Shown: positions 17,474-35,359, numbered from the stretch's first letter. The stretch is 64,000 bases of DNA from Opitutales bacterium (GCA_029254745.1 JAQWWZ010000072.1:4380-68379), one strand, 5' to 3'. Notes: a model not told the origin generated them from the letters alone. Program-made: numbers and translations.

Positions 17474-18799
17474 ATGGCTGCTTCGACCTCTATTTTACCC
17501 CAAAAACTTCACGAATATCCTCAGCAAGATGTGATCGACGGATCTAGCGGAGAATCCGCATCCATTCTTGAGGATTGCCTCAACCATACTGGTGGGGTGT
17601 TACAACTTTTACATCGATATGCTGGCAGAACTTTCTGTTCGCCCGGGAAACGATTACGTCTCGATGAGGGTTCATACTATCCGGATTACATGGACGGTAC
17701 CGGTCTCGATGAAGTCTGGATGGGTTGCACCGTACCCATCGTCACAGGGGTGATTGATTCACGTACAGGTAAAGCTCCTTTTCGTGAAGGTGAATCCCAT
17801 GTGCTCACTCCCAATGGGCAGGTCATCCTGCTGCAGGATTTGATCCTCGCCAACCCTGCAGCGGTCATGGGTGACAAAATTACTGCTTTATCAAAATCAA
17901 TGTATGGCGATCCAACCTGGCCGATTGTGTCCAAGAAATTCGACAATTTGAATCCGATCCCCCATCACCTGCACTGGTCCAAGTGGGAAGTGTACGACAT
18001 CAATTCTTTTGACAACCCAGGCGTTAGCCCGTCGCATTATCATACCACGGCAATGGGACTTTACCCATTTGTGTCCAAGGACGATTTCCTTGCTTGCATG
18101 AAGCGTTTTGGGCAGGGTGAATATAACGGAGTTCGGCACCTTTCCCCGCATGTAATGATGCAACTTGATAACGGCTTTGTTATGCCAAATGGTGTACTGC
18201 ACTCACCGACAGACCTTTGCACTCACGAAGTGCATGTGACCATGGATGAGCACTTTTTAGCAGAGGATCTTACCCTTGATGGCCGTATCGGAGCTGCAGA
18301 TGCATTCTACGCATGCCGGGAAGAGGATTACCCAAAGGATAAACATGAAAATTGGGAGTACTTGGTTGAAAAGTTTGACTTCGAAGCCAATCAGGACCCG
18401 GAATTTGTTTTGAAGAATTCACGCCCAGCAATAACGGCGGAAGAATTTTCAGCTGACGGTGTAGATGCAAAATGGATTGTATACGGTAATTTTCTTGGTG
18501 ACCAAAAGGTCTCAATTCTCCGGCTTACTTTGGAGCCCGGGGCTAAGACATCTTTTTGCCCGGAGTGCCCCGCACTTTTTCACACTAACGGTGGAAGCGG
18601 CCGTATCGGAAAGCTTGAAGTACGATATCATCAGAATATGGTATTGGGAGAGCTCTACCCTGAGGTCGGATTTATTACCCAATCTGCACTTGCCAATGGT
18701 GGTGTCGACATTGAAAACACTGGGTCAGATCCTTTAGTTCTGACCTTTGACTTCCCGCAAAACGGGCATTCTAAAACACCCGGTGTTACTATGGCATAG
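17474..18799 (+). CDS. Divergent class I mannose-6-phosphate-isomerase-like cupin (substrate unknown)
   Basis: WPIVSKKFDNLNPIPHHLH (cf. PMI LxKxLD...SxQxH), WEVY, PNGVLHSP and HEVH cupin metal motifs. Confidence 0.6.
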   Translation: MAASTSILPQKLHEYPQQDVIDGSSGESASILEDCLNHTGGVLQLLHRYAGRTFCSPGKRLRLDEGSYYPDYMDGTGLDEVWMGCTVPIVTGVIDSRTGKAPFREGESHVLTPNGQVILLQDLILANPAAVMGDKITALSKSMYGDPTWPIVSKKFDNLNPIPHHLHWSKWEVYDINSFDNPGVSPSHYHTTAMGLYPFVSKDDFLACMKRFGQGEYNGVRHLSPHVMMQLDNGFVMPNGVLHSPTDLCTHEVHVTMDEHFLAEDLTLDGRIGAADAFYACREEDYPKDKHENWEYLVEKFDFEANQDPEFVLKNSRPAITAEEFSADGVDAKWIVYGNFLGDQKVSILRLTLEPGAKTSFCPECPALFHTNGGSGRIGKLEVRYHQNMVLGELYPEVGFITQSALANGGVDIENTGSDPLVLTFDFPQNGHSKTPGVTMA

Positions 18800-19107
18800 T
18801 AGTCCTCTGATACCGCCCGTCTTACCACTTCGGATCAACTGTTTCCGCTTCTCGGGAGAGGACTGTGGATACGGTAGAATTAAGTGGCATCAGTTATGAA
18901 ACCTGTAAAAGCCATGGTGCCGCTCAAGCTATTGGATGCCCAAGTTCTACTATGCTGAAGCTGGGGTGCCTGTATAGCTGTCTTTTATTTTAATCGATTA
19001 GAATACCCCGTATTGATCTGTAAACACCAACGAAAAGCGTGTTTTCCTTGCCATGCAAAGAAAAAAGCCCTTCCTATCTACTTTCTCCTTTTAATTATAA
19101 ACTTTTT

Positions 19108-20148
19108 ATGAGCGAATTATCTCAGCCTGTAGAACGCTCCGGAATCCTTTCCGGAGGTAATTGGATTATAGACCAAGTCAAAATTATTGATGTCTACCCT
19201 AAGCACGAACAGCTGGCCAATATTCTTGGCCAGTCACAGGGAACCGGTGGGTCCCCTTACAATGTACTCCTGGACCTTGCTAAGATGGGGGCATCTTTTC
19301 CTCTGGAAGGTGCGGGGCTTGTTGGGCAGGATGCATTGGGCAAATTTATTCTTGAGGATTGCAAAAAGAACAGCATCGATTCTCAGTTCATGTCTGTATC
19401 TCCGGGGGCCAGTACATCTTACACCGATGTAATGACTGAAAAAGATGGCGGAAGGCGTACCTTTTTTCACAATAGTGGCGCCAACTCTACCTGGGACGGT
19501 TCAGATATTGATTTTTCAAAAAGTGCCGCCAAGATTTTTCATCTTGGATACTTGCTTTTGCTCGATGCTCTTGATCAGGACCATCCAGAACATGGCACCA
19601 AGGGTGCCGCCTTGCTCGCCAAGGCCAGAGCTGCTGGATTCAGGACCAGCATTGATGTGGTTAGTGAAGACAGTGACCGCTTTGCCCGGATTATTGGTCC
19701 TGCCTTGAAGCAGGTAGATTATTGCATTTTAAATGAAGTGGAAGGCAGCAAGGTAACGGGTGTAAAAGTTCGTGAAGATGGAAAACTGCTCAAGGAAGGC
19801 ATTGAAGAAACTGCTCGTAAACTCTTTGAGCTTGGGGTGGGGGAGTTAGTGGCCATTCATTTCCCTGAAGGCTCCTATGCTCAGTCCAAAGATGGAGAAA
19901 AGGTATGGCATGGTTCCTTGTCCTTACCCAAAGGGTATATTCAAGGTGCAGCTGGAGCAGGAGATGCCTTTTGTTCAGGCGTACTTTTTGGTGTGCATGA
20001 AAATTGGTCTTTAGAGAAATCTCTTCTCACCGGGACTTGTGCCGCAACTGCTTGTATGTCAGATCCTACCTGCACCGATGGCTTGCGTTCTTTAGACCAT
20101 TGCCTGGCTTTAGCTGAAAAATTCGGGGTAGGGGAAGACGAAAGCTAA
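19108..20148 (+). CDS. PfkB/ribokinase-family carbohydrate kinase
   Basis: GGSPYNV, G-x-VGQDALG, C-terminal GAAGAGDAFCSG signature. ATG 19108 preferred over GTG 19039. Confidence 0.92.
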   Translation: MSELSQPVERSGILSGGNWIIDQVKIIDVYPKHEQLANILGQSQGTGGSPYNVLLDLAKMGASFPLEGAGLVGQDALGKFILEDCKKNSIDSQFMSVSPGASTSYTDVMTEKDGGRRTFFHNSGANSTWDGSDIDFSKSAAKIFHLGYLLLLDALDQDHPEHGTKGAALLAKARAAGFRTSIDVVSEDSDRFARIIGPALKQVDYCILNEVEGSKVTGVKVREDGKLLKEGIEETARKLFELGVGELVAIHFPEGSYAQSKDGEKVWHGSLSLPKGYIQGAAGAGDAFCSGVLFGVHENWSLEKSLLTGTCAATACMSDPTCTDGLRSLDHCLALAEKFGVGEDES

Positions 20149-20191: not shown

Positions 20192-21514
20192 ATGTCAGAT
20201 TCCTCACTTAATGATTTTAGCTCTCAAATTCGTGAGCAAGCACTCCAACATGCAGCAGAAGCCGGGGGGTTTCCTGAGCCTACAAATTTACTCAATCTTC
20301 ACGCCCACACCTTTTATTCATTTAACTACAAGGATTATTCCCCGAGTATGTTTGCAGTGGAAGCGAAAAAAGCAGGGCTTGGGTCTGCGGGTATTGTCGA
20401 CTTTGATGTACTCGATGGTTTGGATGAGTTTTGGAATGCTTCCCGCAAGCTTGACCTGAAAGCATGTATTGGATTGGAGTCCCGGGTGTTTGTTCCTGAA
20501 TTTGCAGACCGTGTGATTAATTCCCCGGGAGAGCCTGGCATTTGTTATCATATGGGCACCGGTTTCACGACCACTGAAATTCCCCACGATGCCCAAGACT
20601 TTCTGGACGGGATGAGGACCACATCCGAGCAACGAAATCGTTCTTTGCTCGATCGGGTAAATGCATTTTTAACCCCTTTGACTCTAGATTATGAGCGAGA
20701 TGTTTTGCCGCTTACGCCGAATGGTAACGCTACGGAGCGTCATCTTTGTCTCGCTTATGCCCGCAAGGCGGCGGCTCAGTTTCCCGAGGAATCCGCCCTG
20801 CGTGCGTTTTGGTCCGAGAAGTTGGGGGTGCCTGCGGGAGATCTTAAAGATGTACCGGATGGCCGTGGAATGACTGATTTAATCCGGGCTAGGACCATGA
20901 AAAAGGGAGGTGTCGGCTATGTGCAACCTGATTCCGGTTCTTTTCCCAACATGGCAGAAATGAATCAATTTGTTTTGAAGTGTGGGGCTTTACCAACTTT
21001 AACTTGGCTGGATGGTTGTTCAGATGGAGAGCAAGCCATTCGAGAATTGGTAGAGGTTAGTCAATCCAGTGGTGTGGTTGCGTTTAATATTATTCCTGAC
21101 CGTAATTACACTCCCGGGGCCCCTGATCAAAAACTAAAAAATTTACAGGAAGTAATCAGGCTAACCCAGGAACTTGAACTCCCATTAATTGGAGGAACAG
21201 AAATGAACAGCCCTGGGCACAAATTGGTGGACAGTTTTGAAACCGATGAGTTATCTGCGGTCCATCCAGTATTTCTCCGTGGGGCCCATATTTTACATGC
21301 TCATTCTACCTTGCAGAAATTTGGTAATATGGGATACCTGAGCGAGTGGGCGAGTTCACATTTTGGTCAGGTTAAAGAAAAAAATGACTTTTATGACCAG
21401 TTTGGAGAAATCTTTTCTCCACGGGCCGATACTAGATTACAAGATTCTTTGAGTGCGGAAAAGGCACCGGCAGAAGTGCTCGCTTTGGCCAAGGAAGCCA
21501 TGACTGCAGCGTAA
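20192..21514 (+). CDS. PHP-domain protein (putative sugar-phosphate phosphoesterase, atypical ligands)
   Basis: NLHAHTFYS, AGIVDFD, IGLESRV; C-terminal GGTEMN in place of the usual GSDxH. Confidence 0.7.
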   Translation: MSDSSLNDFSSQIREQALQHAAEAGGFPEPTNLLNLHAHTFYSFNYKDYSPSMFAVEAKKAGLGSAGIVDFDVLDGLDEFWNASRKLDLKACIGLESRVFVPEFADRVINSPGEPGICYHMGTGFTTTEIPHDAQDFLDGMRTTSEQRNRSLLDRVNAFLTPLTLDYERDVLPLTPNGNATERHLCLAYARKAAAQFPEESALRAFWSEKLGVPAGDLKDVPDGRGMTDLIRARTMKKGGVGYVQPDSGSFPNMAEMNQFVLKCGALPTLTWLDGCSDGEQAIRELVEVSQSSGVVAFNIIPDRNYTPGAPDQKLKNLQEVIRLTQELELPLIGGTEMNSPGHKLVDSFETDELSAVHPVFLRGAHILHAHSTLQKFGNMGYLSEWASSHFGQVKEKNDFYDQFGEIFSPRADTRLQDSLSAEKAPAEVLALAKEAMTAA

Positions 21515-21518
21515 TGCA

Positions 21519-22715
21519 GTGAGGAGAACCTTTGTCGGCTTTGGCTTTGGTGCGATCCAAGCCGGCTTGTTTCTTCCTGAAGTTCAAAAGTCTGGAAATT
21601 TTGACCGGATTGTCGTTTCTGAAATCGATCCGGTATTAGTAGATGCAATTCGGAATTCCGGAGGGAAATATTTCTGTAACATTGCAGCGGGCAAACAGGT
21701 AAAGGCAGTTCAAGTTACTGGAGTTGAGATTTACAACCCTTTGCAAGATGTTGACCGGTCTTCTCTAGTTGAAGCGGTTGCAGAGGCGAGCGAGCTTTGT
21801 ACCGCATTGCCCAGTTTCCATATGTACGATACCGGTCCGGCATCGGTTGCCCAATTACTTACTGAAGGTCTGAGGCGGAAAAAGGAGCAACCAGAACTAC
21901 CTGCGGCCGTAGTTTATTCCGCAGAAAATGATACCCGGGCTGCGAAAAGATTAGAGGAAGCCTGTTTGAACTATGCGAATGATGGCTTTGCACATCAGGT
22001 AGTATTTTCAGAGACAGTCATTGGTAAAATGTGCTCAATTGTAACCGATTTATCAAGGATCCAAAGAGAAAGTCTTTGCCCAGTAACTAAAGCATGTCCG
22101 CGGGCGATTCTAGTGGAAGCTTTTAATCAGGTTTTTGTGGATCAAGAAACCCCAACTGGCTTTATACGTGGATTGAATCAATTCTCACCAAAATCGGATT
22201 TATACCCTTTTGCTCTAGCTAAGTTTCTTGGTCAGAATGCAACCCACGCAACTTTAGGTTACTTCGCCGAATCAGAAGGTTTGGAGTACATGAGTGAATT
22301 ATCAGCCCATCCCAAAATAATTGCCCGTGGCCTGCATGCCTACACCGAGGAAGTAGGACAGGGGCTAATTTATCAGTTTGGTAAATTGGGGGAGCATCTC
22401 TTCACCAGGCATGGCTTTGCTGAACATGCAAAAATGGCTGTAGAAAGAATGCTCAATCCATTGCTCGCGGATCCGGTAACGAGGGTTACTCGAGATCCGG
22501 TTAGAAAGCTTGGCTGGGATGATCGCCTTGTAGGAGCAATCCGAATCACTCGTCAAGCGGGCGTTGAACCCGTTGTACTGCTTGAGGCAGCCCGGCTTGC
22601 CCTGAATAAGGCCTGTATGGAAAAACTGTGGACTGACCGTGCCCATGGGTTGAGCCAGATATGGTCGGGGGTGAAAACTTGCGAGTTCAAAGCTATACAA
22701 GATTTGCTTCTGTAG
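21519..22715 (+). CDS. Mannitol-1-phosphate-dehydrogenase-like (long-chain polyol dehydrogenase)
   Basis: FGFGAIQAG Rossmann motif, KFLGQNATHA catalytic K/N segment, NPLLADPVTRVTRDPVRKLGWDDRL matches the MtlD C-terminus. GTG start. Confidence 0.75.
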   Translation: MRRTFVGFGFGAIQAGLFLPEVQKSGNFDRIVVSEIDPVLVDAIRNSGGKYFCNIAAGKQVKAVQVTGVEIYNPLQDVDRSSLVEAVAEASELCTALPSFHMYDTGPASVAQLLTEGLRRKKEQPELPAAVVYSAENDTRAAKRLEEACLNYANDGFAHQVVFSETVIGKMCSIVTDLSRIQRESLCPVTKACPRAILVEAFNQVFVDQETPTGFIRGLNQFSPKSDLYPFALAKFLGQNATHATLGYFAESEGLEYMSELSAHPKIIARGLHAYTEEVGQGLIYQFGKLGEHLFTRHGFAEHAKMAVERMLNPLLADPVTRVTRDPVRKLGWDDRLVGAIRITRQAGVEPVVLLEAARLALNKACMEKLWTDRAHGLSQIWSGVKTCEFKAIQDLLL

Positions 22716-22768
22716 CCTCCCTTTGTTTACTTATCTAATTTTCGAAACAAGGGTTGCATTTCCTTCAA

Positions 22769-22799
22769 AAACGATCAAAATCCATCTTAAACGATCAAA
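22769..22799 (+). promoter_or_regulatory. Direct repeats AAACGATCAAA x2, candidate DeoR operator
   Basis: Copies at 22769-22779 and 22789-22799, exactly 20 bp apart, between a TTGCAT -35-like hexamer (22754) and the probable ATG (22799). Confidence 0.5.
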
Positions 22800-23578
22800 T
22801 GATCCGTGAAGCACACCCAGCCCTTGCTCCTCAACGGAGAGATAAAATCCGCGCCATGATTCGTGACGGAGGGGTTGCCCGTGTCGAAGATTTACGGAAA
22901 AATCTAAAAGTTTCTGTGGCTACCATCCGGAGAGATCTTGAGATTCTAGAAGAAGAAGGAAAAGTACGCCGTGTTCATGGAGGAGCTGTCTCCACTGAAA
23001 GCCGATTGGAGGAAACAGTGTTTGAAAATAAAACCCATATTTCCGCCGCCGCCAAGCAAAGAATTGCGGAAGAAGCATACAAACTTATAGAACCTGAAGA
23101 AGCCATTTATTTGAATGGAGGGAGCACCACGCTATTTCTTGCCCGTTTATTACGTGAACGTTCCGATCTGACTTTAGTGACAAACTCTTTGCAGGCCGCC
23201 ATTGAACTGGCAGATTCAGGTCCCCGTGTCATTCTTACAGGAGGGGAGTTGCGCAGGATCAGTCAGACGATGGTGGGTCCACTTACATCAGCCGTGCTTG
23301 AACAGGTACGGGTAGACAAAGCTTTTATGGGAACGATGGGGATGTGCCTAACTCATGGCCTTACAACTACCGACCCCAATGAAGCCTATTCCAATGATGT
23401 GGTTGCCCGGCAAGCGGGTAAAGTTATTTTACTTGCTGATTCCCAAAAGGCGCAAAAGGTATGTTTTGCCCGTTTTGCTGACTGGAATGAAATCGATCTT
23501 TTATTATCGGACAAAAAACTCTCACCAGATTTCGCAAAGTCTTTGCGAAAGAGGGGGGTTAAAGTCCAACTAACCTGA
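22799..23578 (+). CDS. DeoR/GlpR-family sugar-responsive transcriptional regulator
   Basis: HTH VSVATIRRDLEILE...RRVHGGA, sensor domain LNGGSTT, TNSL, LTGG, DKAFMG. ATG 22799 preferred over TTG 22754. Confidence 0.95.
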   Translation: MIREAHPALAPQRRDKIRAMIRDGGVARVEDLRKNLKVSVATIRRDLEILEEEGKVRRVHGGAVSTESRLEETVFENKTHISAAAKQRIAEEAYKLIEPEEAIYLNGGSTTLFLARLLRERSDLTLVTNSLQAAIELADSGPRVILTGGELRRISQTMVGPLTSAVLEQVRVDKAFMGTMGMCLTHGLTTTDPNEAYSNDVVARQAGKVILLADSQKAQKVCFARFADWNEIDLLLSDKKLSPDFAKSLRKRGVKVQLT

Positions 23579-23608: not shown

Positions 23609-24922
23609 ATGGCCACACCTATCATCATGCCTCGCCAAGGACAATCGGTTGAGAGCTGCATTCTTACCGAATGGAAAGTTAATGTTGGAGACGACGTCGC
23701 TGAAGGCGATGTACTCGCCGTTATCGAAACCGATAAGGCAAGCTTTGATCTGGAATCCACCGCAGCGGGTAAAATACTCGCTCTTTTTTGGGAAGCAGAC
23801 GACGATGTTCCCGTTCTCGCCAATGTCGCAGTAGTCGGAACCGATGGCGAAAATGTTGATGAGTTTCGTCCTGCAGGCCAGGCGGAAACTCCTGCCGCAG
23901 CCCCAAAATCTGCCGAGCCTGTTACTTCTGCTCCTGTCCAGGCTGCTCCGCAAGTTGCTGTCGTTGCCCAACCTGCTTCTACTTCTTTAGTCGCCAGTGC
24001 TGGTGTGAGCCCACGGGCGAGAAGGCTTGGAATTAAGTACGGACTGGATGCAGAAACCTTGAATGGTAGTGGTCCGGGTGGTCGAGTTATTGAGAGAGAT
24101 GTGCAGGCTGCCCTGGATGGAAAGCCCCGTTTGTCAGCCACCGCTCGTTCTCGTTCATTGTCCGAAGACCTTGAGTCCCCGGTTCGCGGAAGCGGACTAG
24201 CAGGAATGGTTCTCTCCAAAGACCTGAAGGTGCCCGGCTCTGTCGATGGTGCGGAGATGTCATCGGTTAAGGGAATCCGCAAGGTGATTGCCGAGCGTAT
24301 GATCCAATCCCTACAAACCACTGCCCAACTCACTTTACACGCATCTTTTGAGCTTACCCAAGCCCAGGCCTACCGAAAGCAGAGGCTGGAAGATGGGCAG
24401 TCCAAGGTTTCGTTAAATGATGTTATTGCCCATGGGATTGTGCAGTCCCTCAAGGCGCATCCAGAAATGAATGCCCATTTCCTCGGCAACCGTATTGCAA
24501 CCTTTGAAAAAGTTCACCTCGGTGTTGCGGTTGATACACCTCGTGGCTTGCTGGTGCCAGTGATAAAAAATGCGTCGGACTTATCAATTGAGCAAATTTC
24601 GGCTGAAGTCAAAAGCCTGGCTGGTGCCTGCCGGGAAGGAACTATTTCACCCGACAACTTATCTGGTGGATCCTTTACGCTTACAAATCTTGGAATGCTT
24701 GGCGTTGAAAACTTTACACCTGTGCTTAATGCCCCAGAAGTTGGCATCCTTGGGGTCGGTGGCATCGTTCTCAAACCTAAACGAACCGAGAGTGGAGAGG
24801 TTGTGTATGTCGATACTTTACCTCTTAGTTTGACCATTGATCACCAAGGTGTAGACGGTGCTCCCGCCGCCCGCTTTCTCCAAACCCTTGTCGAAAAGCT
24901 AGAAAATAATCCTGGAGCTTAA
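23609..24922 (+). CDS. Dihydrolipoamide acyltransferase (E2) of a 2-oxoacid/acetoin dehydrogenase-type complex
   Basis: Lipoyl motif IETDKA, Ala/Pro linker, E3-binding GSGPGGRV plus a second copy GSGLAGMV, FTLTNLG, catalytic DHQGVDG. Confidence 0.95.
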   Translation: MATPIIMPRQGQSVESCILTEWKVNVGDDVAEGDVLAVIETDKASFDLESTAAGKILALFWEADDDVPVLANVAVVGTDGENVDEFRPAGQAETPAAAPKSAEPVTSAPVQAAPQVAVVAQPASTSLVASAGVSPRARRLGIKYGLDAETLNGSGPGGRVIERDVQAALDGKPRLSATARSRSLSEDLESPVRGSGLAGMVLSKDLKVPGSVDGAEMSSVKGIRKVIAERMIQSLQTTAQLTLHASFELTQAQAYRKQRLEDGQSKVSLNDVIAHGIVQSLKAHPEMNAHFLGNRIATFEKVHLGVAVDTPRGLLVPVIKNASDLSIEQISAEVKSLAGACREGTISPDNLSGGSFTLTNLGMLGVENFTPVLNAPEVGILGVGGIVLKPKRTESGEVVYVDTLPLSLTIDHQGVDGAPAARFLQTLVEKLENNPGA

Positions 24923-24962
24923 ATTTAATTTAACCCTATAAGATAGAAATAAACTTACTGAA

Positions 24963-26306
24963 ATGAAATACGATTTTGCTGTTATTGGAGCCGGTCCTGC
25001 CGGATATGTCGCCGCTAAAAAAGCCGCCGGGGCTGGTCTTAAGACCTTACTTGTTGAAAAGAAAAAACTTGGAGGTGTATGCTTGAACGAAGGCTGTGTT
25101 CCATCCAAGACACTTTTACAAGCTGCTAAAACCTATCATCATGCCAAGCATGGTTCGGTCTTTGGGGTTTCCGTTGAAGGCCTGACCTTTGATTTTTCTA
25201 AAGCCCACTCTCATAAGAATGGAGTGATGAACAAAATGCGTGACGGGATTGCGGGCCTGATGAAAAAATACAAAATTGATGTAATCGACGGAGCAGCCGT
25301 GCTTAAACCAAACCGTAAAATTGAAGTGAACGGGGAAGAGCATGAAGCAGACAATATTTTAATTTGTACTGGTTCCTCTCCTGCGGTCCCTCCCATTCCT
25401 GGAATTGATCAGGAGCATGTGGTAGATTCTACCGGGATTTTAAATCGCGAAACCCTACCCAACCGCTTGATCGTTGTAGGTGGTGGAGTGATCGGTTGTG
25501 AGTTTGCCTGCATGTACGCATCCGTGGATGTACCGGTTACAGTGTTGGAGGCAATGCCCGAAATATGTCCAAATTTGGATGTAGAAGTAGCAGCTACTTT
25601 ACGAAAAGAATTGGCCAAAAAAGGTGTGGACTTTCAACTTGGTTGTAAGGTTGAGGAAATTGGGTCTTCTCAGGTTAAGTATCATGATGGTACAGAATCC
25701 AAAGAAATTGAAGGTGATTTGGTTCTTGTGGCAACTGGTCGCCGACCCAATGTTACCAATATTGGCCTTGAAGAACTTGGCTTAGAATTTTCTCCACGTG
25801 GAATCAAAGTAGATGAACGCGGTGCCACTAATCTTCCTGGAGTTTGGGCTGCAGGTGACGTGACGGGTCAAGCTTGGCTTGCTCATGCTGCAAGCAGAAT
25901 GGGAGAGGTTATTGTGAATAATATAACGGGACGAAGTGATCAGATGCGTTATGACGCCATGCCTGCCGTTGTATACACCAGCCCCGAAGTTGCGGTTGTT
26001 GGTTTGACCAAGGAAGAAGCCGAAGAACGTGGTATCAAAACACGATCTGGTAGAATTCCTATGGCAATCAACGCTCGCTACATTGCAGAGAATCCAGACG
26101 AGGCTGGCCTCTGTAAAGTGGTACTTGAGGATGGTACAAACCGTTTACTCGGAGTGCACATGGTAGGGGGAGCTTGTTCAGAAATGATATTCGGTGCCAC
26201 GGCCATGATTGAAGCTGAACTGCGAGAAGAGGAGATTGAAGAAATTGTATTTCCTCACCCAACCACCTCGGAAATTGTGAAGGATGTCTTTATGGCCGTT
26301 CGCTAA
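24963..26306 (+). CDS. lpdA: Dihydrolipoamide dehydrogenase (E3)
   Basis: GAGPAG, redox disulfide CLNEGCVP, GGGVIG, GDVTG..LAH, HPTTSE. Confidence 0.95.
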   Translation: MKYDFAVIGAGPAGYVAAKKAAGAGLKTLLVEKKKLGGVCLNEGCVPSKTLLQAAKTYHHAKHGSVFGVSVEGLTFDFSKAHSHKNGVMNKMRDGIAGLMKKYKIDVIDGAAVLKPNRKIEVNGEEHEADNILICTGSSPAVPPIPGIDQEHVVDSTGILNRETLPNRLIVVGGGVIGCEFACMYASVDVPVTVLEAMPEICPNLDVEVAATLRKELAKKGVDFQLGCKVEEIGSSQVKYHDGTESKEIEGDLVLVATGRRPNVTNIGLEELGLEFSPRGIKVDERGATNLPGVWAAGDVTGQAWLAHAASRMGEVIVNNITGRSDQMRYDAMPAVVYTSPEVAVVGLTKEEAEERGIKTRSGRIPMAINARYIAENPDEAGLCKVVLEDGTNRLLGVHMVGGACSEMIFGATAMIEAELREEEIEEIVFPHPTTSEIVKDVFMAVR

Positions 26307-26353
26307 GCGATTTACTCTTAACCTAATACACAACCATTTAATTTTTATTTGTC

Positions 26354-28807
26354 ATGCCGAAGTCACAAATTATTGAACCAGCCGTAGAACGTAAAGCCGG
26401 AACTATTCCTTTCAAGGAAGTCTCCCTCAACCAATACAAAGGTGATCTCAAAAATGAGGTTGAAACCTATGGAGCCGAAGCCCTTATCGGAATCTATGAA
26501 GATATGCTGCTCATCCGTGAGTTCGAAAGCATGCTCCAAAGTATAAAGACCCAAGGGTCCTATGAAGGTGTTGAGTATGATCATAAGGGTCCTGCCCACC
26601 TCTCCATCGGGCAGGAAGCTTCGGCAGTGGGGCAGGCCTTTCTCCTTGGCGTGGACGATCACATCCTTGGGTCCCACCGCTCCCATGGGGAAATTCTTGC
26701 TAAGGGAATGTCTTCCATACGAAAGCTTGACGATGATACATTGATGGAGATCATGAAAAACTTTTTGGGTGGAGATTGTTTTGGCGTGGTTGAAAAGGAA
26801 GGGGCTGATAATGTAAAGGCACTTGCCCGTAACTTCCTGCTCTATGGTGCCCTGGCCGAGGTCTTTGGAAGAGCCAATGGTTTCAATCGTGGTCTAGGTG
26901 GTTCTATGCATGCCTTTTTTACTCCCTTTGGTATCCTTCCAAATAATGCAATTGTCGGTGGTTCCGCTGATATTGCCATGGGTGCCTCTCTCTTTAAAAA
27001 GTGCAACCGCAAGCCCGGTATTGTAATCTCCAATGTGGGAGATGCATCTATGGGTTGTGGACCGACTTGGGAAGCGATGAACTTTGCCTCTATGCGCCAG
27101 TTCCATGAATTATGGGAAGATTCAATGAAGGGTGGATTGCCCATCATTTTCAATTTTATGAATAATTTTTATGGAATGGGTGGACAGACTGCTGGTGAGA
27201 CCATGGCTTTTGATTTCTTAGCCCGGGTAGGAGCTGGGGTTAATCCTGACTCTATGCATGCTGAGCGGGTGGATGGATACAATCCTCTGGCAGTGGCTGA
27301 TGCCATTCGCCGTAAGAAAACATTACTCGAACAGGGAGATGGTCCGGTACTCTTGGAAACCATTACTTATCGTTACTCCGGACACTCTCCATCGGATGCA
27401 TCCTCTTACCGCTTAAAAGAAGAGATTGAAGCCTGGCAGGCGATTGATCCTTTGGAAGCATATGCAAAAGAAATTATTGAGGGTGGGTTGATAAACAAGG
27501 AGCAACTTGAGGAATGTAAGGCATCAACCACGAAGGCAATGACACAGGCTTGCAGGCTTGCATCCTGTCTGGAAACCTCCCCCCGTTTACCTTCCGAAAA
27601 GATTGCCGGCTTGATGTTTTCTAAGCGCAAAGTCGAAAACTATGATCCTTCCCGTAAGCCTGAACTTATTTTGCCAGCTGCTGAAAACCCCCGTGTTTTA
27701 GCATTGGCCAAAAAGTCTCGAGCTGGGATTATTGACGGTAAGCCCGTTTCCAAGAACAAGGTTTACCAATACCGCGATGCCATTTTTGAGGCTGTTTTCC
27801 ACCGTTTCCAGAACGATTCAACTTTGGTTGCTTACGGAGAGGAAAATCGGGACTGGGGAGGTGCTTTTGCCTGTTACCGGGGATTAACTGAGTCTTTGCC
27901 CTATCACCGATTGTTCAATTCTCCCATTTCTGAAGCTGCGATTGTAGGTTCAGCTGTTGGATATGCCCTTCAGGGAGGACGTGCTTTGGTTGAGTTAATG
28001 TATTGTGATTTTATGGGTCGTGCAGGAGATGAGATCTTTAATCAGTTGGCTAAGTGGCAGAGTATGTCTGCCTGTGTGCTGGAAATGCCCGTGGTTTTAC
28101 GGGTATCTGTGGGGTCAAAATACGGCGCTCAACACTCTCAGGACTGGTGTGCGATCTGTAACCATATTCCTGGCTTACAGGTTGTCTTTCCTTCTACTCC
28201 TTACGATGCCAAGGGTATGCTTAATACTGCACTAGCTGGCAGTGACCCTGTGGTTTTCTTTGAAAGCCAACGTCTCTATGATATTGGGGAGCTTTTTGAA
28301 AAGGAAGTGCCCGAAGGATATTATGAAATTCCTTTTGGACTGCCAGCTCAACGCAGAGTGGGAAATGATGTGACCATTATCACTGTGGGCGCAACCATGT
28401 ACCGGGCTTTGGAAGCTGCAGATATTCTTGAACAAAAATATGGAGTGACATCAGATGTTTTTGATTGCCGTTCGATCACGCCATTGGATTACGAACCACT
28501 TGTTGAATCGGTTCGTAAAACCGGAAAGGTATTGCTTTCTTCAGATGCTTGTGAGCGCGGATCCGTTATGCAAGATATAGCTTCAAAATTAGGCCAATTG
28601 GCCTTTGACGAATTAGATGCACCCCCTGTAGTTGTTGGATCTCGGAACTGGATAACCCCCTGTGCTGAGGTGGAAGAGGATTTCTTTCCTCAACCGTCCT
28701 GGATGATTGATGCGATTCATCAAAACATCTTACCTTTGCCTGGTCATGTAATGACAACCAACCCGACGACTGGGGAAATGATTAAGCGTTACCGAGAAGG
28801 GGTATAA
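26354..28807 (+). CDS. Fused alpha/beta E1 ThDP-dependent dehydrogenase component
   Basis: [20 protein letters not shown], ThDP motif GDA...[11 protein letters not shown]; beta part [21 protein letters not shown]. Confidence 0.93.
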
Positions 28808-28929: not shown

Positions 28930-29679
28930 ATGGATTATTTAGAAAAATATTCTGATAAAGTCGATACCTTCATCGGGGTATGTCATCACTTGTCTGCCCA
29001 CCAGTATGTGACTGGGCATGGTGGGAATCTTGCCTGGAAATTGGAGGACGATGTCATTTTAATCACTCCAACCAAGCACAACAAAGGGGATGTGAATCGT
29101 GAAAATGTTGTCTTTATCAACCTTGCTGGGGAAACGATCGAAGGCACGGTGAAGCCTACGGGTGAAACACCGATGTATGTGAATTTTTTCAGGGAACGCC
29201 CCGATGTGCAAGCGGTGCTTCATTGTCACCCGCCCCATCTCAATGCCTTTGCCATTTCGGACTCTAAAAACTACCATATGTGTCCTCTCTTTCCTGAGAC
29301 TATTACCGAAGTGGGACCGGTTCCGGTTGTTCCATATGGGGAACCATTAACTCAAAAGCTTGCAGATAATTTTTTACCATTTTTGCAAAAGTATAATGGT
29401 TTTCTCATGGAAAATCATGGCTATGTGTTCATCACGCCGTGGGATATAAAATGGGCTCAGATGTGTACCGACTTGCTCGAGATGACCGCGTTGCACATCA
29501 TTCACGCCCGTAGCTTGGGTGGAAATATTAAAGAAATTGGATATGAAGACCTTCAAAACATGGGGAATATTATGAAAACTCGTGGATTACCCTTACCGGG
29601 TGCCCCTGGTGAATGGTCAAGTCTGGAGGATATGTATTTCCCGGACGGTCCTCCAAAAAGTTTAACCAACTTATCTTAA
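28930..29679 (+). CDS. Class II aldolase/adducin family protein (FucA/AraD-like)
   Basis: GGNL, ITPT, ETPM, Zn motif HCH, LMENHG. Confidence 0.9.
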   Translation: MDYLEKYSDKVDTFIGVCHHLSAHQYVTGHGGNLAWKLEDDVILITPTKHNKGDVNRENVVFINLAGETIEGTVKPTGETPMYVNFFRERPDVQAVLHCHPPHLNAFAISDSKNYHMCPLFPETITEVGPVPVVPYGEPLTQKLADNFLPFLQKYNGFLMENHGYVFITPWDIKWAQMCTDLLEMTALHIIHARSLGGNIKEIGYEDLQNMGNIMKTRGLPLPGAPGEWSSLEDMYFPDGPPKSLTNLS

Positions 29680-29682
29680 TTT

Positions 29683-31497
29683 ATGCCAACTACCAAAATT
29701 GACAGAGCTCAGGAGCTAGCAAAAAAAGCTCGTTCATCACATCACGGGGTTTACCTTACCGGCCCGAACGAAGTAAAAGTACTGGAAGACGACCTACCAG
29801 TTGCTTCTTTGAACGGAGAAAATTATCTTCTGGCTAGTTTTGGTAATTGCAGGTGTGCGTCAGATGCTAAAGCAATTCGTCAATTTGATACCCATGCAAG
29901 GGTACCATCTGGAGTGGACCGTATTGCGTTGGGTCATGAAACCCTACAGCTTGTATTGGAAGCGCCTACAGATTCAAATGTTGTGCCTGGGGATGTGGTT
30001 GTCGTTACCCCAGGGCACGCTACAAAACCAATTGATCCGCTGACCTTTAAGCCTAGCAAGGATGGGGTTCTTTCATCGCTTGGCTATTCTTACCGGTACC
30101 TTGGCGGACTTCGGCAATTCAGTATTGTTCCGGGTACTGCACCTGCTTTTGTTAAGGCTCAGGGCTTTGGGAACTTTTTCAACCCTGTCTCGCCAAGCGA
30201 GAAAACAAGCCTTGTTACGCTGGCTCACGCTGAACCTTTTGCCTGCAATTATGGCACCAATAAACACATCTTCACGATCGATCAAAATAGAGAATTTTTA
30301 TACGGCGTGCCCTCTCGTTCCATTGTAGCTTACCTTTCCGGGACGGCTCGGATGGCAATGATCAACCTGACGATTGTAGCGAGTGTACCAGATGAAGACT
30401 TACCTCCCGTCGTTTACATAACAGGTTCTCAGTCCAAACTGGATGAAATGGAAGAATATGCTCTCATCAAGGATTTACGAAAGCGGGGAACTCGAGTTGT
30501 TTTAATAGATCGTAATGATCCCAGCATCATTACAAAACTTACAGAGTTCGGTAAACCTCATGTGGTTTGGACGAATTATGCATCAGTTGCCACCTATGAG
30601 CAGGCAAGTGCAATTATGGCCAAAGGAGGAAATTTAAATAGTTATGCGGGTGCTGTTGATCCCGAACTTACCTTTGAAATGCCTATCTGCGAAGCTCCTC
30701 ATTTTTCTACTTTTGAGGAAGAGGCTATAAGCCAAATAGGAGAGATGCATCACAATCTTTCTCCAAATGACCCCAAACGATATCGTGGCTTGGCCAAGGA
30801 TCCCAAAATTGCCTTGATTGGTTTCGAAGAAGGGTCCGATCGGGAAGCTGCCTACCTAAACCAATTTCCCAAAGGAACCTCGGTGTTGTTTTCCTTGATG
30901 GGTAATGCCCGCGATGGGTTTGAACCCTGCTCACTTAAGGACGGTGGTTTTACAGATGTCTTTATTGCTGGTCGTGGAAATTATGCCGCTTCTGCTTATG
31001 CTGATATTGAAACACAACTCGCTCGTTCAGCTGCGGTTAATTTTATTGATGGGGATGTTGAGCTCAAGATTCGCTCTAAGAACGCTCACTATGTAACGCG
31101 TCATCAAATCTGTGGCGTTAATGTGCCTTGGCATATGACTAACACCTCAGAACCTCATGCCGATGACATGCTTGTTCAAGCGAGTAACCCTGTATCTTTT
31201 GATTGGATGGTAAAAGGAGTTTGTGGCTTAAAAAATGTGCCAAACATGATGGACGAAGTTGAATCGGCTCAGCCATTTGGTTCTTTTTTTGCTTTTGCCG
31301 AACTTGTAGATTTGCCATATGTCGAAACTACGGCCTCTGCATTTCGAGCTGCGGCGGAAAGTTCCCCTAACCCCGTTAAAGAATCCTTACTTGCCGGGGC
31401 GGACGCCTTAGATATTACAGGTGATGTATGGAGTAGAAAAGTCGAGGAAGCAATTTATGAAGGGTATGAATTTCCATATCCTCTTAATCTGACATAG
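29683..31497 (+). CDS. Extended SorE-like (L-sorbose-1-phosphate reductase family) Zn medium-chain dehydrogenase
   Basis: C58, GHE (H85/E86), GYSYRYLGG, EPFAC, later AHY..HQICG, TSEPHADDM and VWSRKVE align with my recollection of SorE; about 200 aa longer than SorE. Confidence 0.65.
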   Translation: MPTTKIDRAQELAKKARSSHHGVYLTGPNEVKVLEDDLPVASLNGENYLLASFGNCRCASDAKAIRQFDTHARVPSGVDRIALGHETLQLVLEAPTDSNVVPGDVVVVTPGHATKPIDPLTFKPSKDGVLSSLGYSYRYLGGLRQFSIVPGTAPAFVKAQGFGNFFNPVSPSEKTSLVTLAHAEPFACNYGTNKHIFTIDQNREFLYGVPSRSIVAYLSGTARMAMINLTIVASVPDEDLPPVVYITGSQSKLDEMEEYALIKDLRKRGTRVVLIDRNDPSIITKLTEFGKPHVVWTNYASVATYEQASAIMAKGGNLNSYAGAVDPELTFEMPICEAPHFSTFEEEAISQIGEMHHNLSPNDPKRYRGLAKDPKIALIGFEEGSDREAAYLNQFPKGTSVLFSLMGNARDGFEPCSLKDGGFTDVFIAGRGNYAASAYADIETQLARSAAVNFIDGDVELKIRSKNAHYVTRHQICGVNVPWHMTNTSEPHADDMLVQASNPVSFDWMVKGVCGLKNVPNMMDEVESAQPFGSFFAFAELVDLPYVETTASAFRAAAESSPNPVKESLLAGADALDITGDVWSRKVEEAIYEGYEFPYPLNLT

Positions 31498-31545: not shown

Positions 31546-32367
31546 ATGAGCTGGACAAATTTAGAAGGAAAAGTAGTTATTATAACCGGCGGAGCGGCTG
31601 GAATTGGGTTGGCTGTTGCAAAAGGCTTTATCGAAGTGGGTGCAAAAGTAATGATTGCAGATTTTGCAGAAGAAATCGGGCAGAAAGCAGCCACAGAAGC
31701 AACGAAGTTTGGAATTGGAGAGGCTGCTTTTGCGAGGTGTGATGTTTCAAGTAAGGCGGATGTAGATTCTGTGATTGCTCAAACTGTTGAGAAATGGGGT
31801 GCTGTTGATGTTTTGGTTAACAATGCGGGTATAAATATCCCTCGTTTGCTAGTGGACCCAGCAGGTAAGGAAGAATTAACAGAAGATGTCTGGGACAAAG
31901 TTTTTGCGGTGAATGTGAAAGGACAGTTTTTATTTGCCCAAGCAGCGGCCCGTCAAATGCTTGCAGGGGGAAATGGGGGAGTCCTTATTAATATGTCATC
32001 TGAGTCAGGCATGGAGGGAAGTGAAGGACAAAGTGTTTATGCGGCTACCAAAGCTGCAAATCATAATTTAACCAGATCGTGGGCCAAAGAACTTGGGAAG
32101 TCAGGTGTCCGGGTAATCGGAGTTGCTCCTGGAATTATGGAAACGACTGGAATGCGCAGTTTAGCCTATGAAGAATCCTTAGCTTATACCCGCGGAGTAA
32201 GTGTGGATGAGTTACGAAGCAAGTACGGATCGGTTTCTTCCATTCCTTTGGCTCGCAGTGGAAAACTTACTGAAGTATCAGATTTAGTGGTTTACCTAGC
32301 TTCCGAGCGTGCATCCTATTTGCATGGTACAACGGTTAATATTTCAGGGGGCAAATCTCGGGGATAA
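31546..32367 (+). CDS. sorD: Sorbitol-6-phosphate 2-dehydrogenase-like SDR (SorD type)
   Basis: TGGAAGIG, NNAGINIPRLLVD, SSESGMEGSEGQSVYAATKAA, WAKELGK, ISGGKSRG closely match SorD motifs. Confidence 0.8.
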   Translation: MSWTNLEGKVVIITGGAAGIGLAVAKGFIEVGAKVMIADFAEEIGQKAATEATKFGIGEAAFARCDVSSKADVDSVIAQTVEKWGAVDVLVNNAGINIPRLLVDPAGKEELTEDVWDKVFAVNVKGQFLFAQAAARQMLAGGNGGVLINMSSESGMEGSEGQSVYAATKAANHNLTRSWAKELGKSGVRVIGVAPGIMETTGMRSLAYEESLAYTRGVSVDELRSKYGSVSSIPLARSGKLTEVSDLVVYLASERASYLHGTTVNISGGKSRG

Positions 32368-32384: not shown

Positions 32385-32843
32385 CTACTCTTTCCAGGTA
32401 GTCACTCCTTTTACCAAAAGTAAATTGGCGTAGACTCGCACATCTCCTGTCATCACGACTGCGAAGGCATTAGACGCCCGATCATAAAAATCAAACTTAT
32501 CCATTTTTTCAATAGATGGAGTTTCCGGATAGTGTTCATGGATGGTCGTGGTGTAGTCATCACAAACTTCATGGTATTTGCTTAGAAGAGTTTTTGATTG
32601 TCGATCTTCGAGTATCGGTTCCATCATCACTACCGGATGTTTGACGGCATGATCCAGAACAAACAAAGGAAGAATGGCATGAACCAAATCTTTTATTAAA
32701 AGCCCGTCCGCGCGAATAATATTTTGGTTTTTGCTTTCTCCGGGAAAGTGAGCATCACCAAACACAATTTCATCGTGGTGACCCATCCGGTAAAGAGTTT
32801 CTAATAGTCTTGGACTAATCAGGGGGGAAATACCTTTAAGCAT
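32385..32843 (-). CDS. fucU: RbsD/FucU-family sugar mutarotase
   Basis: MLKGISPLISP.LL..L..MGHHDEIVFGDAHFP, FYDRA..AFAVV.TGD.R.YANLLL.KGV. Confidence 0.9.
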   Translation of the reverse strand: MLKGISPLISPRLLETLYRMGHHDEIVFGDAHFPGESKNQNIIRADGLLIKDLVHAILPLFVLDHAVKHPVVMMEPILEDRQSKTLLSKYHEVCDDYTTTIHEHYPETPSIEKMDKFDFYDRASNAFAVVMTGDVRVYANLLLVKGVTTWKE

Positions 32844-33022: not shown

Positions 33023-34017
33023 TTACCCTAGCTCTACTTTTAGAATTTGTCCAAAAATTTTAGATAAATTTTCATAAGCCACAAAGAGCTTAAAATGAGA
33101 GTTTGCTGCTTTCGTAAGTCCGTCCAAATTATATCCACCTTCAAGAAAGGAAATGATTCTTTCATCGCAGTACTCTTCAACAAGATCCCGGATGATGAAA
33201 CTGAGGCCGGCAAAGTCTTGATCGTCCAATGCAAATTGGCCATGGGGATCTCCCATCCTAGAATCAAAACCTGCCGAAATCATAAGTAATTCAGGTTTGT
33301 ATTTGTTTATTTTCTTTTTTAGTTCGATACCAAAGCCATCTTCAACGATCTCTTTTCTTGCACTCCCTGCAGGTAGAGGGAAATTGAGAGTGGTACCTAA
33401 GCCTTTTCCCTTACCGGTTTGGTCTTTAGTTCCAGTACCTGGATGCCAAGGATGTTGATGAACGCTCATAAAAAACAGATTCATCCTCATAAAAATATCT
33501 TAGGTTCCATTTCCGTGGTGAACATTCCAGTCCACAATTAAAACTTTACCAACACTATATTTTTTGAGCATAACGAGCAGCAATTGCAATATGGCTGAAA
33601 AGACAAAACCCCATTCCTTTATTAGGTGTAGCATGATGCCCTGGAGGGCGGACTATACAAAATACACGTTTTTAATTTACCTGAAAATAGATGGTTGACT
33701 GCAAGAGTGCCTGCACCAGTCGCTGTTCGAGCAACCAACCATGATTCTCGGCTTACATGGGTGTCACCAATTTATAAACTAAGCTTGCCGGATGATATAT
33801 CTTTCTTGGTAAGAGAAAGATAGAGAAGGTCGTGAACAAGGCTGAGGGTACTCTCAGTGCATGCTGTAGGAAGGAGAATGGACACATCTTTTAAAAGGTC
33901 TGCCTGCAGTAAACTTTGGTAGACACGGGTCGCTCGGATCGACTGTTCTGGATGTCCTATCCCCGTGGTATGATTTTCGAAATATTTATCGTAAACCACT
34001 CCAGATGTGGTAACCAC
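33023..34017 (-). pseudogene. Histone deacetylase/AcuC-family pseudogene
   Basis: HPE, GDT, RPPGHHA, GMGFC, DWNVHHGNGT, ISAGFD and LEGGY are spread over several frames. In-frame TAA at 33772-33774 and 33500-33502; homopolymer frameshifts near 33669-33673, 33560-33565 and 33470-33495. Confidence 0.9.
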
Positions 34018-35214: not shown

Positions 35215-35359
35215 AAATTGAATTTCTGTCCTATGAGGTAATGCTTGGTGGGAAAATTAGCAAACTTGATTTCAGGTATCCAACAATAATTCGCTGAAAT
35301 GATTGAAAAATAGAGGAAAGTTTGACTATCTTTCATTGGATCATTACCGAGGTAAACCT

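Follow-up and report, generated by a model that had tools for sequence, protein, structure and literature searches.

What does a complete lipoamide-linked dehydrogenase complex do inside a bacterial sugar operon? The question is raised by a 64,000-nucleotide (nt) stretch of DNA from a marine Opitutales bacterium (GCA_029254745.1 JAQWWZ010000072.1:4380-68379; hereafter the window), in which positions 23609-28807 encode, in the order E2-E3-E1, the components of a thiamine diphosphate (ThDP)-dependent multienzyme complex. The host genome is 2.45 Mb long and 96.5% complete, and its nearest named relative is Candidatus Chordibacter forsetii (Opitutales). We found that relatives of these genes form a module that accompanies L-fucose and L-rhamnose utilization genes in many phyla. 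The module probably marks an undescribed step in deoxy-sugar breakdown, and there is an even chance, judged by analogy, that this step is the oxidative cleavage of a fucose- or rhamnose-derived methyl ketol, in the manner of acetoin dehydrogenase, to give acetyl coenzyme A (acetyl-CoA).

Window proteins were compared by Pfam, NCBIfam, and PDB sequence searches, which gave the following assignments for the three components:

23609-24922, plus strand: E2, a dihydrolipoyl acyltransferase of 437 amino acids (Pfam Biotin_lipoyl, E3_binding, and 2-oxoacid_dh)
24963-26306, plus strand: E3, a dihydrolipoyl dehydrogenase of 447 amino acids (TIGR01350 lipoamide_DH, 497.6 bits; cut-off, 408.8)
26354-28807, plus strand: E1, a fused alpha/beta ThDP component of 817 amino acids (Pfam E1_dh, Transket_pyr, and Transketolase_C in a single chain)

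The genes are closely spaced (40 nt between E2 and E3 and 47 nt between E3 and E1), and the original prediction had correctly placed the start of the block 30 nt past a DeoR-family gene, with an aldolase gene downstream (class II, 122 nt after E1). It had also listed the catalytic motifs, every one of which was found at its stated place. E2 carries the lipoyl lysine in ETDKA at residue 40 and DHQGVDG at residue 411, a motif that varies between DHQ and DHR within the E2 family. E3 has its redox-active CxxxxC as CLNEGC at residue 40, and E1 has SHRSHG at 107, GDA at 229 with NN at 270, GHS at 343, and GAQHSQ at 591. His343 of GHS, the activator glutamate of PISE in the beta half, and the histidine of GAQHSQ are invariant or nearly so in 72 family members. 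E1 joins the ThDP domain of an E1-alpha subunit to the pyrimidine-binding and C-terminal domains of an E1-beta subunit. We rejected a frameshift artifact as the source of this fusion, as 817-amino-acid orthologues occur in hundreds of assemblies. The predicted insertions were seen as well: relative to human pyruvate dehydrogenase (PDH) E1 alpha, E1 has 43 additional residues (query positions 123-165) directly after the SHRSHG...KG segment and close to a conserved ThDP-site motif, 12 within the GDA..NN ThDP motif, and 6 further on. In PDB and NCBIfam, E1 matches PDH E1 alpha and beta best, and it scored far under the cut-offs of the PDH equivalog models (193.6 bits for TIGR03182, with a cut-off of 393.85, and 221.9 bits in the other case, with a cut-off of 321). 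E1, E2, and E3 all show the membership features of the E1-alpha/beta class of 2-oxoacid and acetoin complexes. Judged from their sequences, the three proteins make up a complete ThDP/lipoamide/FAD multienzyme complex with intact catalytic motifs.

The complex is not a housekeeping PDH or 2-oxoglutarate dehydrogenase (OGDH), an identity we rejected because the genome encodes both at separate loci, for which the original prediction had advised a search. PdhA, PdhB, and their E2 lie on one other contig (C54:156512-159839) and SucA, SucB, and Lpd on another (C70:9043-13914). The window E2 is 30% identical to the housekeeping E2 on C54, and the window E3 is 38% identical to the Lpd beside SucAB on C70. 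The window complex is thus the third of its kind in this genome and is located in a sugar-catabolic run of genes, directly downstream of a gene of the DeoR family.

E1 relatives are encoded in at least 580 genome stretches, counted among the first 600 matches. We kept 80 of these loci as a neighborhood set, in which all open reading frames (ORFs) were clustered. E1 identity in these loci ranged from 61 to 96% across more than 10 phyla: 96% in a sister metagenome-assembled genome (MAG), 68 to 72% in Lentisphaerota, Kiritimatiellota, and Victivallales, and 61 to 65% in Spirochaetota, Bacillota, Bacteroidota, Planctomycetota, Armatimonadota, Sumerlaeota, Acidobacteriota, and Chloroflexota. Many of the lineages that carry this E1 are obligate anaerobes, and cultured carriers include Carboxylicivirga mesophila, Saccharicrinis sp. 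FJH54, and Anaerohalosphaeraceae bacterium U12dextr. The recurrent genes were those for E1 (77 of the 80 loci), E2 (61), E3 (54), a short-chain dehydrogenase/reductase (SDR; 46), a DeoR regulator (39), a PHP-fold protein of roughly 420 amino acids (38), and a zinc-dependent medium-chain dehydrogenase/reductase (MDR) of 420 to 600 amino acids (35). A GntR/UTRA regulator replaces DeoR in the Bacteroidota loci, where SDR and class II aldolase domain form one protein that has the architecture of RhaEW and scores far under the RhaEW cut-off. In three Clostridia-type loci, LipB and LipA are encoded within the module. The E1, E2, E3, and PHP proteins of the window appear from their sequences to be clear orthologues of those of the conserved module, and the window shares the combination of E2, E3, and a DeoR or GntR regulator with a fused E1 of 817 to 825 amino acids that belongs to the tight clade. 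Even within the order of the host, the module is patchily distributed (among 150 Verrucomicrobiota genomes), which fits horizontal spread, and we conclude from these comparisons that the set of regulator, E2, E3, E1, PHP protein, polyol-type MDR, and SDR is a horizontally spread module. A full-text literature search found no description of this module or of a ThDP/lipoamide complex in fucose or rhamnose operons.

The genes that surround the module point to deoxy sugars. At least one fucose or rhamnose marker gene was present in 26 of the 44 loci that were at least 15 kb long. In a planctomycete locus (L085), the module is flanked by RhaA, RhaT, a glycoside hydrolase family 78 (GH78) rhamnosidase, an AraC regulator, and a RhaE-like aldolase, and a further locus (L080) gave phmmer/tblastn sequence matches to this rhamnose gene set, including GH78, RhaT, and RhaA. 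GH29 and GH95 fucosidases are encoded in L076, and a rhamnulokinase that scores over the NCBIfam equivalog cut-off lies beside the module in a related locus. L027 and L033 carry FucI beside the module, L027 carries FucU as well, and a FucI match was found in L016. A lactaldehyde-reductase-like iron-containing alcohol dehydrogenase and a fructose-6-phosphate aldolase/transaldolase (FSA/TAL) are present in L057, with sequence matches to both in L051. In three loci of Lentisphaerota and Victivallales (L016, L019, and L025), a kinase gene and DeoR face the module divergently, together with FucI in L016, and the module occupies what we take to be the place of fucAO in the Escherichia coli fuc regulon. 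The same arrangement, with the module divergent from FucI, kinase, and DeoR, was seen in one Lentisphaerales genome that we examined, in which the sole class II aldolase-family gene is AraD, with a ribulokinase adjoining (the completeness of this genome is not established).

We then compared whole genomes, using an even sample of 150 Verrucomicrobiota genomes, 26 of which have this E1 family. FucI or RhaA was present in 25 of the 26 genomes with this E1 and in 81 of the 124 without it (naive Fisher P value of 8e-4, uncorrected for relatedness). Two other patterns were not supported. Complementarity between the module and microcompartments was not significant: of the 106 FucI- or RhaA-positive Verrucomicrobiota, 25 had the module, 17 had a bacterial microcompartment (BMC) shell, and 2 had both. 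The idea that module genomes lack any aldolase was not upheld, as a class II aldolase-family gene was present in 5 of 5 module genomes tested.

To place the E1 among its relatives, we built a tree of 61 rows from the fused proteins, concatenated alpha-beta references, and the PdhAB of the host genome. References came from annotated PDH, branched-chain 2-oxoacid dehydrogenase (BCKDH), and acetoin loci, including plasmid loci, and their labels rest on annotation and operon context. The tree was rooted by choice on the single BCKDH reference, and the position of BCKDH is therefore not a result. The 817-amino-acid E1 family formed a single clade (99 in the Shimodaira-Hasegawa-like approximate likelihood ratio test, SH-aLRT) within a superclade of long fused E1s, which itself stands on a branch of 0.75 with a support of 100. 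The PDH references, including the genome's own PdhAB, grouped apart from E1 (support, 96). Acetoin references from Burkholderia, Mycetohabitans, and Acinetobacter formed a clade of their own (support, 100), and this clade shares its side of the tree with the fused groups. In this tree, E1 nests in neither the PDH nor the AcoAB references and does not join the BCKDH root row; the nesting that the original prediction had named as its refutation was thus not seen in the tree. When the E1 alpha half was used to look for named relatives that are unfused, all matches were fragments of this family.

Two more distant groups show how far the sugar link extends. A sister clade includes a fused E1 on plasmid pRL8 of Rhizobium johnstonii 3841 (L088 10830-17649) that is 53.6% identical to the window E1. 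Next to it, a 78-amino-acid stand-alone lipoyl protein and an AcoC-like alpha/beta hydrolase replace a normal E2, there is no E3 gene, and the context comprises kinases (one of them a carbohydrate kinase), a sugar-phosphate isomerase, two sugar ABC systems, and RbsD/FucU. A distant fused E1 that also has 817 residues (subfamily P0128; L095 3144-10454) is 44% identical and is without sugar genes. Ahead of it are encoded an AMP-binding adenylating enzyme, a carrier protein, peptidases of the M28 type, and an E2 whose recorded domains are limited to E3_binding and the catalytic domain, possibly a natural-product context rather than a sugar context. The non-sugar setting of P0128 restricts the sugar link to the 817-amino-acid clade and the pRL8 clade.

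In the window itself, the complex is part of a run of 11 genes on the plus strand, with gaps of 3 to 48 nt except for 239 nt before the PfkB gene and the 122 nt after E1. Upstream of E2 lie, in order:

17474-18799, plus strand: a protein of 441 amino acids, first of the run, with no Pfam, NCBIfam, or PDB sequence match
19039-20148, plus strand: a PfkB-family sugar kinase of 369 amino acids (Pfam PfkB, 88.8 bits)
20192-21514, plus strand: a PHP-fold phosphoesterase-like protein of 440 amino acids (Pfam PHP, 31.9 bits)
21519-22715, plus strand: a mannitol-dehydrogenase-family (MtlD-like) oxidoreductase of 398 amino acids (Pfam Mannitol_dh and Mannitol_dh_C)
22754-23578, plus strand: a DeoR-family regulator of 274 amino acids (Pfam HTH_DeoR and DeoRC)

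Downstream of E1, the run continues with an aldolase-family gene and two dehydrogenase genes and meets a convergent gene:

28930-29679, plus strand: a class II aldolase-family protein of 249 amino acids (Pfam Aldolase_II, 105 bits)
29683-31497, plus strand: a polyol-dehydrogenase-type MDR zinc oxidoreductase of 604 amino acids (zinc-ligand family alignment and family profile)
31546-32367, plus strand: an SDR of 273 amino acids of the type "sorbitol-6-phosphate dehydrogenase subunit" (NF004817, 355 bits; cut-off, 304)
32385-32843, minus strand: L-fucose mutarotase FucU, 152 amino acids, convergent (NF011949, 141.8 bits; cut-off, 141)

The 441-residue orphan has an 88% identical copy at the same place in a sister Opitutales MAG (L006) and only there among the fetched loci. 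The PfkB kinase, whose best NCBIfam match is IolC-like (76.7 bits, under the cut-off), is kept in the Opitutia loci L006, L011, and L013. The PHP protein is 48 to 58% identical to Lentisphaerota and Victivallales members, with which it shares the invariant residues of the family alignment (among them H37, H39, E96, H184, E280, and H371). Its AlphaFold2 model has a predicted local distance difference test score of 92.7, and a fold search gave Cv1693 (2yb1), BAD_1165, and RNase AM as best folds. The MtlD-like protein scored about 90 bits with the NCBIfam mannitol-1-phosphate 5-dehydrogenase models, under their cut-offs. For the aldolase-family protein, the top NCBIfam match was the OtnC decarboxylase (99.5 bits; cut-off, 250), and the best PDB match was 6voq (E value of 1.5e-21, compared with 1.5e-9 for E. 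coli FucA). Among relatives whose loci reach beyond E1, the two nearest (L006 and L007) are the only ones with this gene after E1; in other Opitutia loci, the MDR gene comes directly after E1. The MDR family alignment keeps the catalytic zinc ligands, with C58, H85, E86, and E184 invariant, and the family profile matches sorbitol dehydrogenase and ketose reductase. The window MDR is scarcely detected by Pfam and is about 180 residues longer than the 420-residue form in Clostridia and Bacteroidota; it is 64 to 69% identical to those of close Opitutia relatives and 15 to 24% identical to other module MDRs. The window SDR shares 24 to 35% identity with the RhaW-like SDRs that the module has in other phyla. 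FucU scored only 33 bits with the D-ribose pyranase model, and it occupies the same position in L008, L011, L013, and L014; the adjacency is kept across five Opitutia loci. PDB sequence searches with the PHP protein, the 604-residue MDR, and the 441-residue orphan returned nothing useful, and promoter and terminator scans, in which sites were fewer than in shuffled sequence, did not reveal operon boundaries. Past FucU, a 155-amino-acid ORF (33023-33490, minus strand) matches only the C-terminal part of the histone-deacetylase family (profile positions 166-296 of 298) and is either a truncated gene or has a miscalled start. The flanks of the sugar island look ordinary, with a two-domain PPK2 that passes the polyphosphate:AMP phosphotransferase model on one side (15676-17181, plus strand) and a GTP-type phosphoenolpyruvate carboxykinase on the other (35303-37174, plus strand).

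Elsewhere in the host genome, FucI and a rhamnulokinase-like FGGY kinase sit together on contig C9. Contig C61 carries a 353-amino-acid RhaE-like aldolase (L087 7529-8590, minus strand) that has the aldolase domain and the linker region of the aldolase-SDR fusions, adjoins a sulfatase gene, and is 48% identical to the copy beside RhaA in the planctomycete locus L085. A search of the host genome did not find a microcompartment shell gene, RhaA, or GH29, and such absence calls in MAGs are affected by MAG incompleteness.

Which reaction might the complex catalyze in this setting? In the scheme that we favor, the polyol-type dehydrogenases of the module would oxidize the CH3-CHOH end of a fucose or rhamnose intermediate, either the 6-deoxyketose 1-phosphate made by isomerase and kinase or three-carbon lactaldehyde/propanediol, to a methyl alpha-ketol (CH3-CO-CHOH-R). 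The ThDP of E1 would attack the keto carbon, and the adjacent C-C bond would be cleaved as in the E1 of acetoin dehydrogenase, yielding an aldehyde and hydroxyethyl-ThDP. The acetyl group would then pass to the lipoyl-lysine of E2 and on to CoA, and E3 would reoxidize dihydrolipoamide with NAD+. The net outcome would be acetyl-CoA straight from the deoxy end of the sugar, and cleavage at the six-carbon level would bypass free lactaldehyde. Acetoin dehydrogenase cleaves an alpha-ketol and not a 2-oxoacid, and enzymes of the sorbitol dehydrogenase, MtlD, and SrlD types act on polyols or polyol phosphates at the position beside the chain end. A reaction of the acetoin type seems to us the most economical because 6-deoxy sugars offer a CH3-CHOH terminus, because the accessory dehydrogenases are of types that oxidize the carbon next to the chain end, and because E1, which is found in anaerobes, falls on the acetoin side of the tree. 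Occurrence in strict anaerobes, together with the LipA and LipB of three Clostridia-type loci, fits acetoin-type cleavage better than an NAD-linked PDH. The original prediction of a complex repurposed to cleave a sugar ketol holds insofar as the complex is accessory, embedded in a sugar operon, and distinct from housekeeping PDH, OGDH, and BCKDH; its comparative context points to 6-deoxyhexose catabolism and not, as had been proposed, to ketoses generally.

The cleavage could be placed at either of two levels. At the six-carbon level, the ketose 1-phosphate would be oxidized at C5, a step that might be preceded by a C2 reduction like that of the SorE/SrlD scheme for sorbose, and the co-product would be a C4 aldehyde phosphate that could be oxidized to 3-oxo-tetronate 4-phosphate. 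The aldolase-family protein of the window might decarboxylate this compound to dihydroxyacetone phosphate (DHAP), a role suggested because the protein is closer to the OtnC/6voq group than to E. coli FucA. Taken together, these steps would make an L-fucose/L-rhamnose route free of aldolase and microcompartment, in which a methyl-ketol sugar phosphate is cleaved to acetyl-CoA and a C4 aldehyde phosphate and the latter is converted to DHAP by the OtnC-like protein. We put this full route forward tentatively, as possible rather than likely; if it is true, toxic free lactaldehyde would never be formed. At the three-carbon level, lactaldehyde would be converted via propanediol to hydroxyacetone, with formaldehyde as co-product of the cleavage, or an FSA-type aldolase would first join hydroxyacetone to glyceraldehyde 3-phosphate.

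Several observations weigh against cleavage of a deoxy-sugar ketol. The window E1 falls outside the acetoin reference clade, and the substrate is assigned from context and analogy alone. The PHP phosphoesterase finds no place in any scheme that we drew. Acetol at the three-carbon level would yield formaldehyde, and no formaldehyde-handling genes were seen in the module. The association of the E1 with FucI or RhaA at the genome level is modest, given a background of 65% and no correction for relatedness, and some class II aldolase-family gene was present in all five module genomes tested. The aldolase-SDR fusions of Bacteroidota and the RhaE-like aldolases, whether adjacent to RhaA or elsewhere, as on C61, fit an ordinary aldolase route, and such a route followed by lactaldehyde oxidation makes pyruvate a candidate substrate of the complex. 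Finally, the MDR and SDR of the window, at the identities given above, are not clear orthologues of those of the module, and the substrate of the Opitutales version may have changed.

The main rival builds on this aldolase route. In it, the complex would be a pathway-dedicated PDH: an aldolase would give DHAP and L-lactaldehyde, a RhaW-like SDR would oxidize the latter to L-lactate, another dehydrogenase would form pyruvate, and the complex would turn pyruvate into acetyl-CoA and CO2. RhaEW has been found experimentally to combine aldolase and lactaldehyde dehydrogenase activities and to make lactate (PMC3870299), and fusions of this type lie inside the Bacteroidota module, while RhaE-like aldolases stand beside RhaA in L085 and G004 and also occur in the host. 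The best PDB and NCBIfam matches of E1 speak for a PDH too. Against this, the genome already encodes PdhAB and its E2, and E1 lies off the PDH clade on a long branch and has insertions at the ThDP site. The module contains no enzyme of the lactate dehydrogenase type, its MDR being polyol-type, and identity of more than 60% across phyla suggests a special substrate constraint. An NAD-linked PDH would also be unusual in the Clostridia, Treponema, and Sedimentisphaerales that carry the module. Without NAD+, RhaEW formed neither DHAP nor lactate from rhamnulose 1-phosphate (PMC3870299); the dependence of this "aldolase" step on the dehydrogenase means that the steps in this enzyme family could follow another order than that of simple aldol cleavage. 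On balance, we regard a dedicated PDH as rather unlikely.

Could the fucose link be incidental in the Opitutales? In this lineage, the substrate of the complex might be some other sugar or polyol (examples are a hexitol phosphate, a derivative of a tetrose, and a 2-keto sugar acid). The low identity of the window MDR and SDR to their counterparts in other phyla would fit such a change, as would the MtlD-like dehydrogenase, the PfkB kinase, the orphan, and the OtnC-like 249-residue aldolase-family protein that this lineage adds; it is because of these two features that the Opitutales version may differ in detail. The failure to find GH29 fucosidase and RhaA in the host genome points in the same direction. 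Against it stand the FucU adjacency in five Opitutia loci, with a FucU that passes the L-fucose mutarotase model, the presence of FucI with a kinase in the host genome, and the clear orthology of E1, E2, E3, and the PHP protein to the module. We therefore consider a different sugar substrate unlikely.

The original prediction put forward a variant in which, in the manner of transketolase, a ketose phosphate would donate a C2 glycolaldehyde unit in an oxidative transfer that gives glycolyl-CoA; this variant found no specific support. Such chemistry is feasible in principle for ThDP enzymes, and the sugar-phosphate context with a DeoR regulator would suit it. E1, however, scored 68 bits with the transketolase model (cut-off, 488) and 57.5 bits with Dxs (cut-off, 466), and only the shared pyrimidine-binding and C-terminal domains match; with the tree placing it among the E1 alpha/beta enzymes, these profile comparisons indicate that E1 is not a transketolase or a Dxs. 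No genes for handling glycolyl-CoA or glycolate were seen in the module, and 6-deoxyketose 1-phosphates have their phosphate at C1 and would give a phosphoglycolyl unit. This variant is very improbable. The idea of an ordinary branched-chain 2-oxoacid or classical acetoin/2,3-butanediol complex merely located in a sugar operon, for which the JGI annotation of family members ("2-oxoisovalerate dehydrogenase E1 component") and a possible role of MDR and SDR as butanediol dehydrogenases could be cited, can practically be set aside, given that E1 groups with neither the BCKDH reference at the root nor the acetoin references, that the AcoR, AcoX, and acyl-CoA dehydrogenase genes of the reference loci were not recognized in the module, and that kinases, a phosphoesterase, and fucose or rhamnose genes consistently accompany the module.

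How does the complex compare with known systems? It belongs, as far as sequence can tell, to the E1-alpha/beta class of lipoamide complexes and fails the tests for PDH and for acetoin dehydrogenase in both clade and operon context. With PdhABCD and its heterotetrameric E1 it shares its best sequence matches, the catalytic residues, and the domain set, whereas the order E2-E3-E1, the fused E1, and scores far under the equivalog cut-offs set it apart. The acetoin system (AcoA/AcoB/AcoC/AcoL) resembles it in having an E1 alpha/beta-type ThDP component, a lipoyl E2, and an E3, in its occurrence in anaerobes, and in its side of the tree, and an AcoC-like alpha/beta hydrolase is used by the sister-clade system of pRL8. 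It differs in that the window E1 is fused, sits on a separate long branch, and has the three insertions, and the window E2 has a classical catalytic domain. In addition, the regulator of the module is DeoR or GntR and not the sigma-54 AcoR of the reference loci, there is no AcoX, and the neighbors are sugar kinases, a PHP phosphoesterase, and fucose or rhamnose genes.

The L-sorbose pair offers a parallel for the accessory dehydrogenases. SorE, a ketose-1-phosphate reductase of the MDR class, and SorD/SrlD, a hexitol-6-phosphate dehydrogenase of the SDR class, shift a carbonyl group between the chain ends, and the module has the same two enzyme classes. Similarity is low, however, with all scores under the family cut-offs, there is no phosphotransferase system in the module, and the products in the module would be 1-deoxyketose phosphates.

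The closest metabolic neighbors are the phosphorylated L-fucose and L-rhamnose pathways (fucPIKUR/fucAO, rhaBAD, and RhaEW), whose genes for isomerase, kinase, mutarotase, transporter, and glycosidase are neighbors of the module. The SDR of the module is a RhaW paralogue, and in Bacteroidota it forms a fusion with a RhaE-like aldolase. The known pathways lead to lactaldehyde, and this is converted to lactate or propanediol or enters a microcompartment; to our knowledge, none of these pathways includes a ThDP/lipoamide complex, a PHP protein, or an MDR of the polyol type. The current models known to us are limited to the nonphosphorylated route and the aldolase/lactaldehyde route, whether microcompartments are involved or not. 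Recent genome-classification schemes for fucose likewise use only two MetaCyc routes (PMC13668718).

Fucose and rhamnose, the deoxy sugars of algal fucoidans, ulvans, plant pectins, and mucins, are difficult to digest, and carbon turnover in the sea as well as the ecology of the gut is affected by how Verrucomicrobiota, Planctomycetota, Bacteroidota, and their relatives degrade them. Compared with the known routes, the module brings a ThDP/lipoamide complex into deoxyhexose operons, where it would serve either a new C-C ketol cleavage or a new way of lactaldehyde disposal; either outcome, if true, would alter carbon and redox balances and add a new substrate class for E1 enzymes. A new sugar-cleaving reaction has a real chance, and since cultured carriers exist, which reaction the complex performs can be tested directly.

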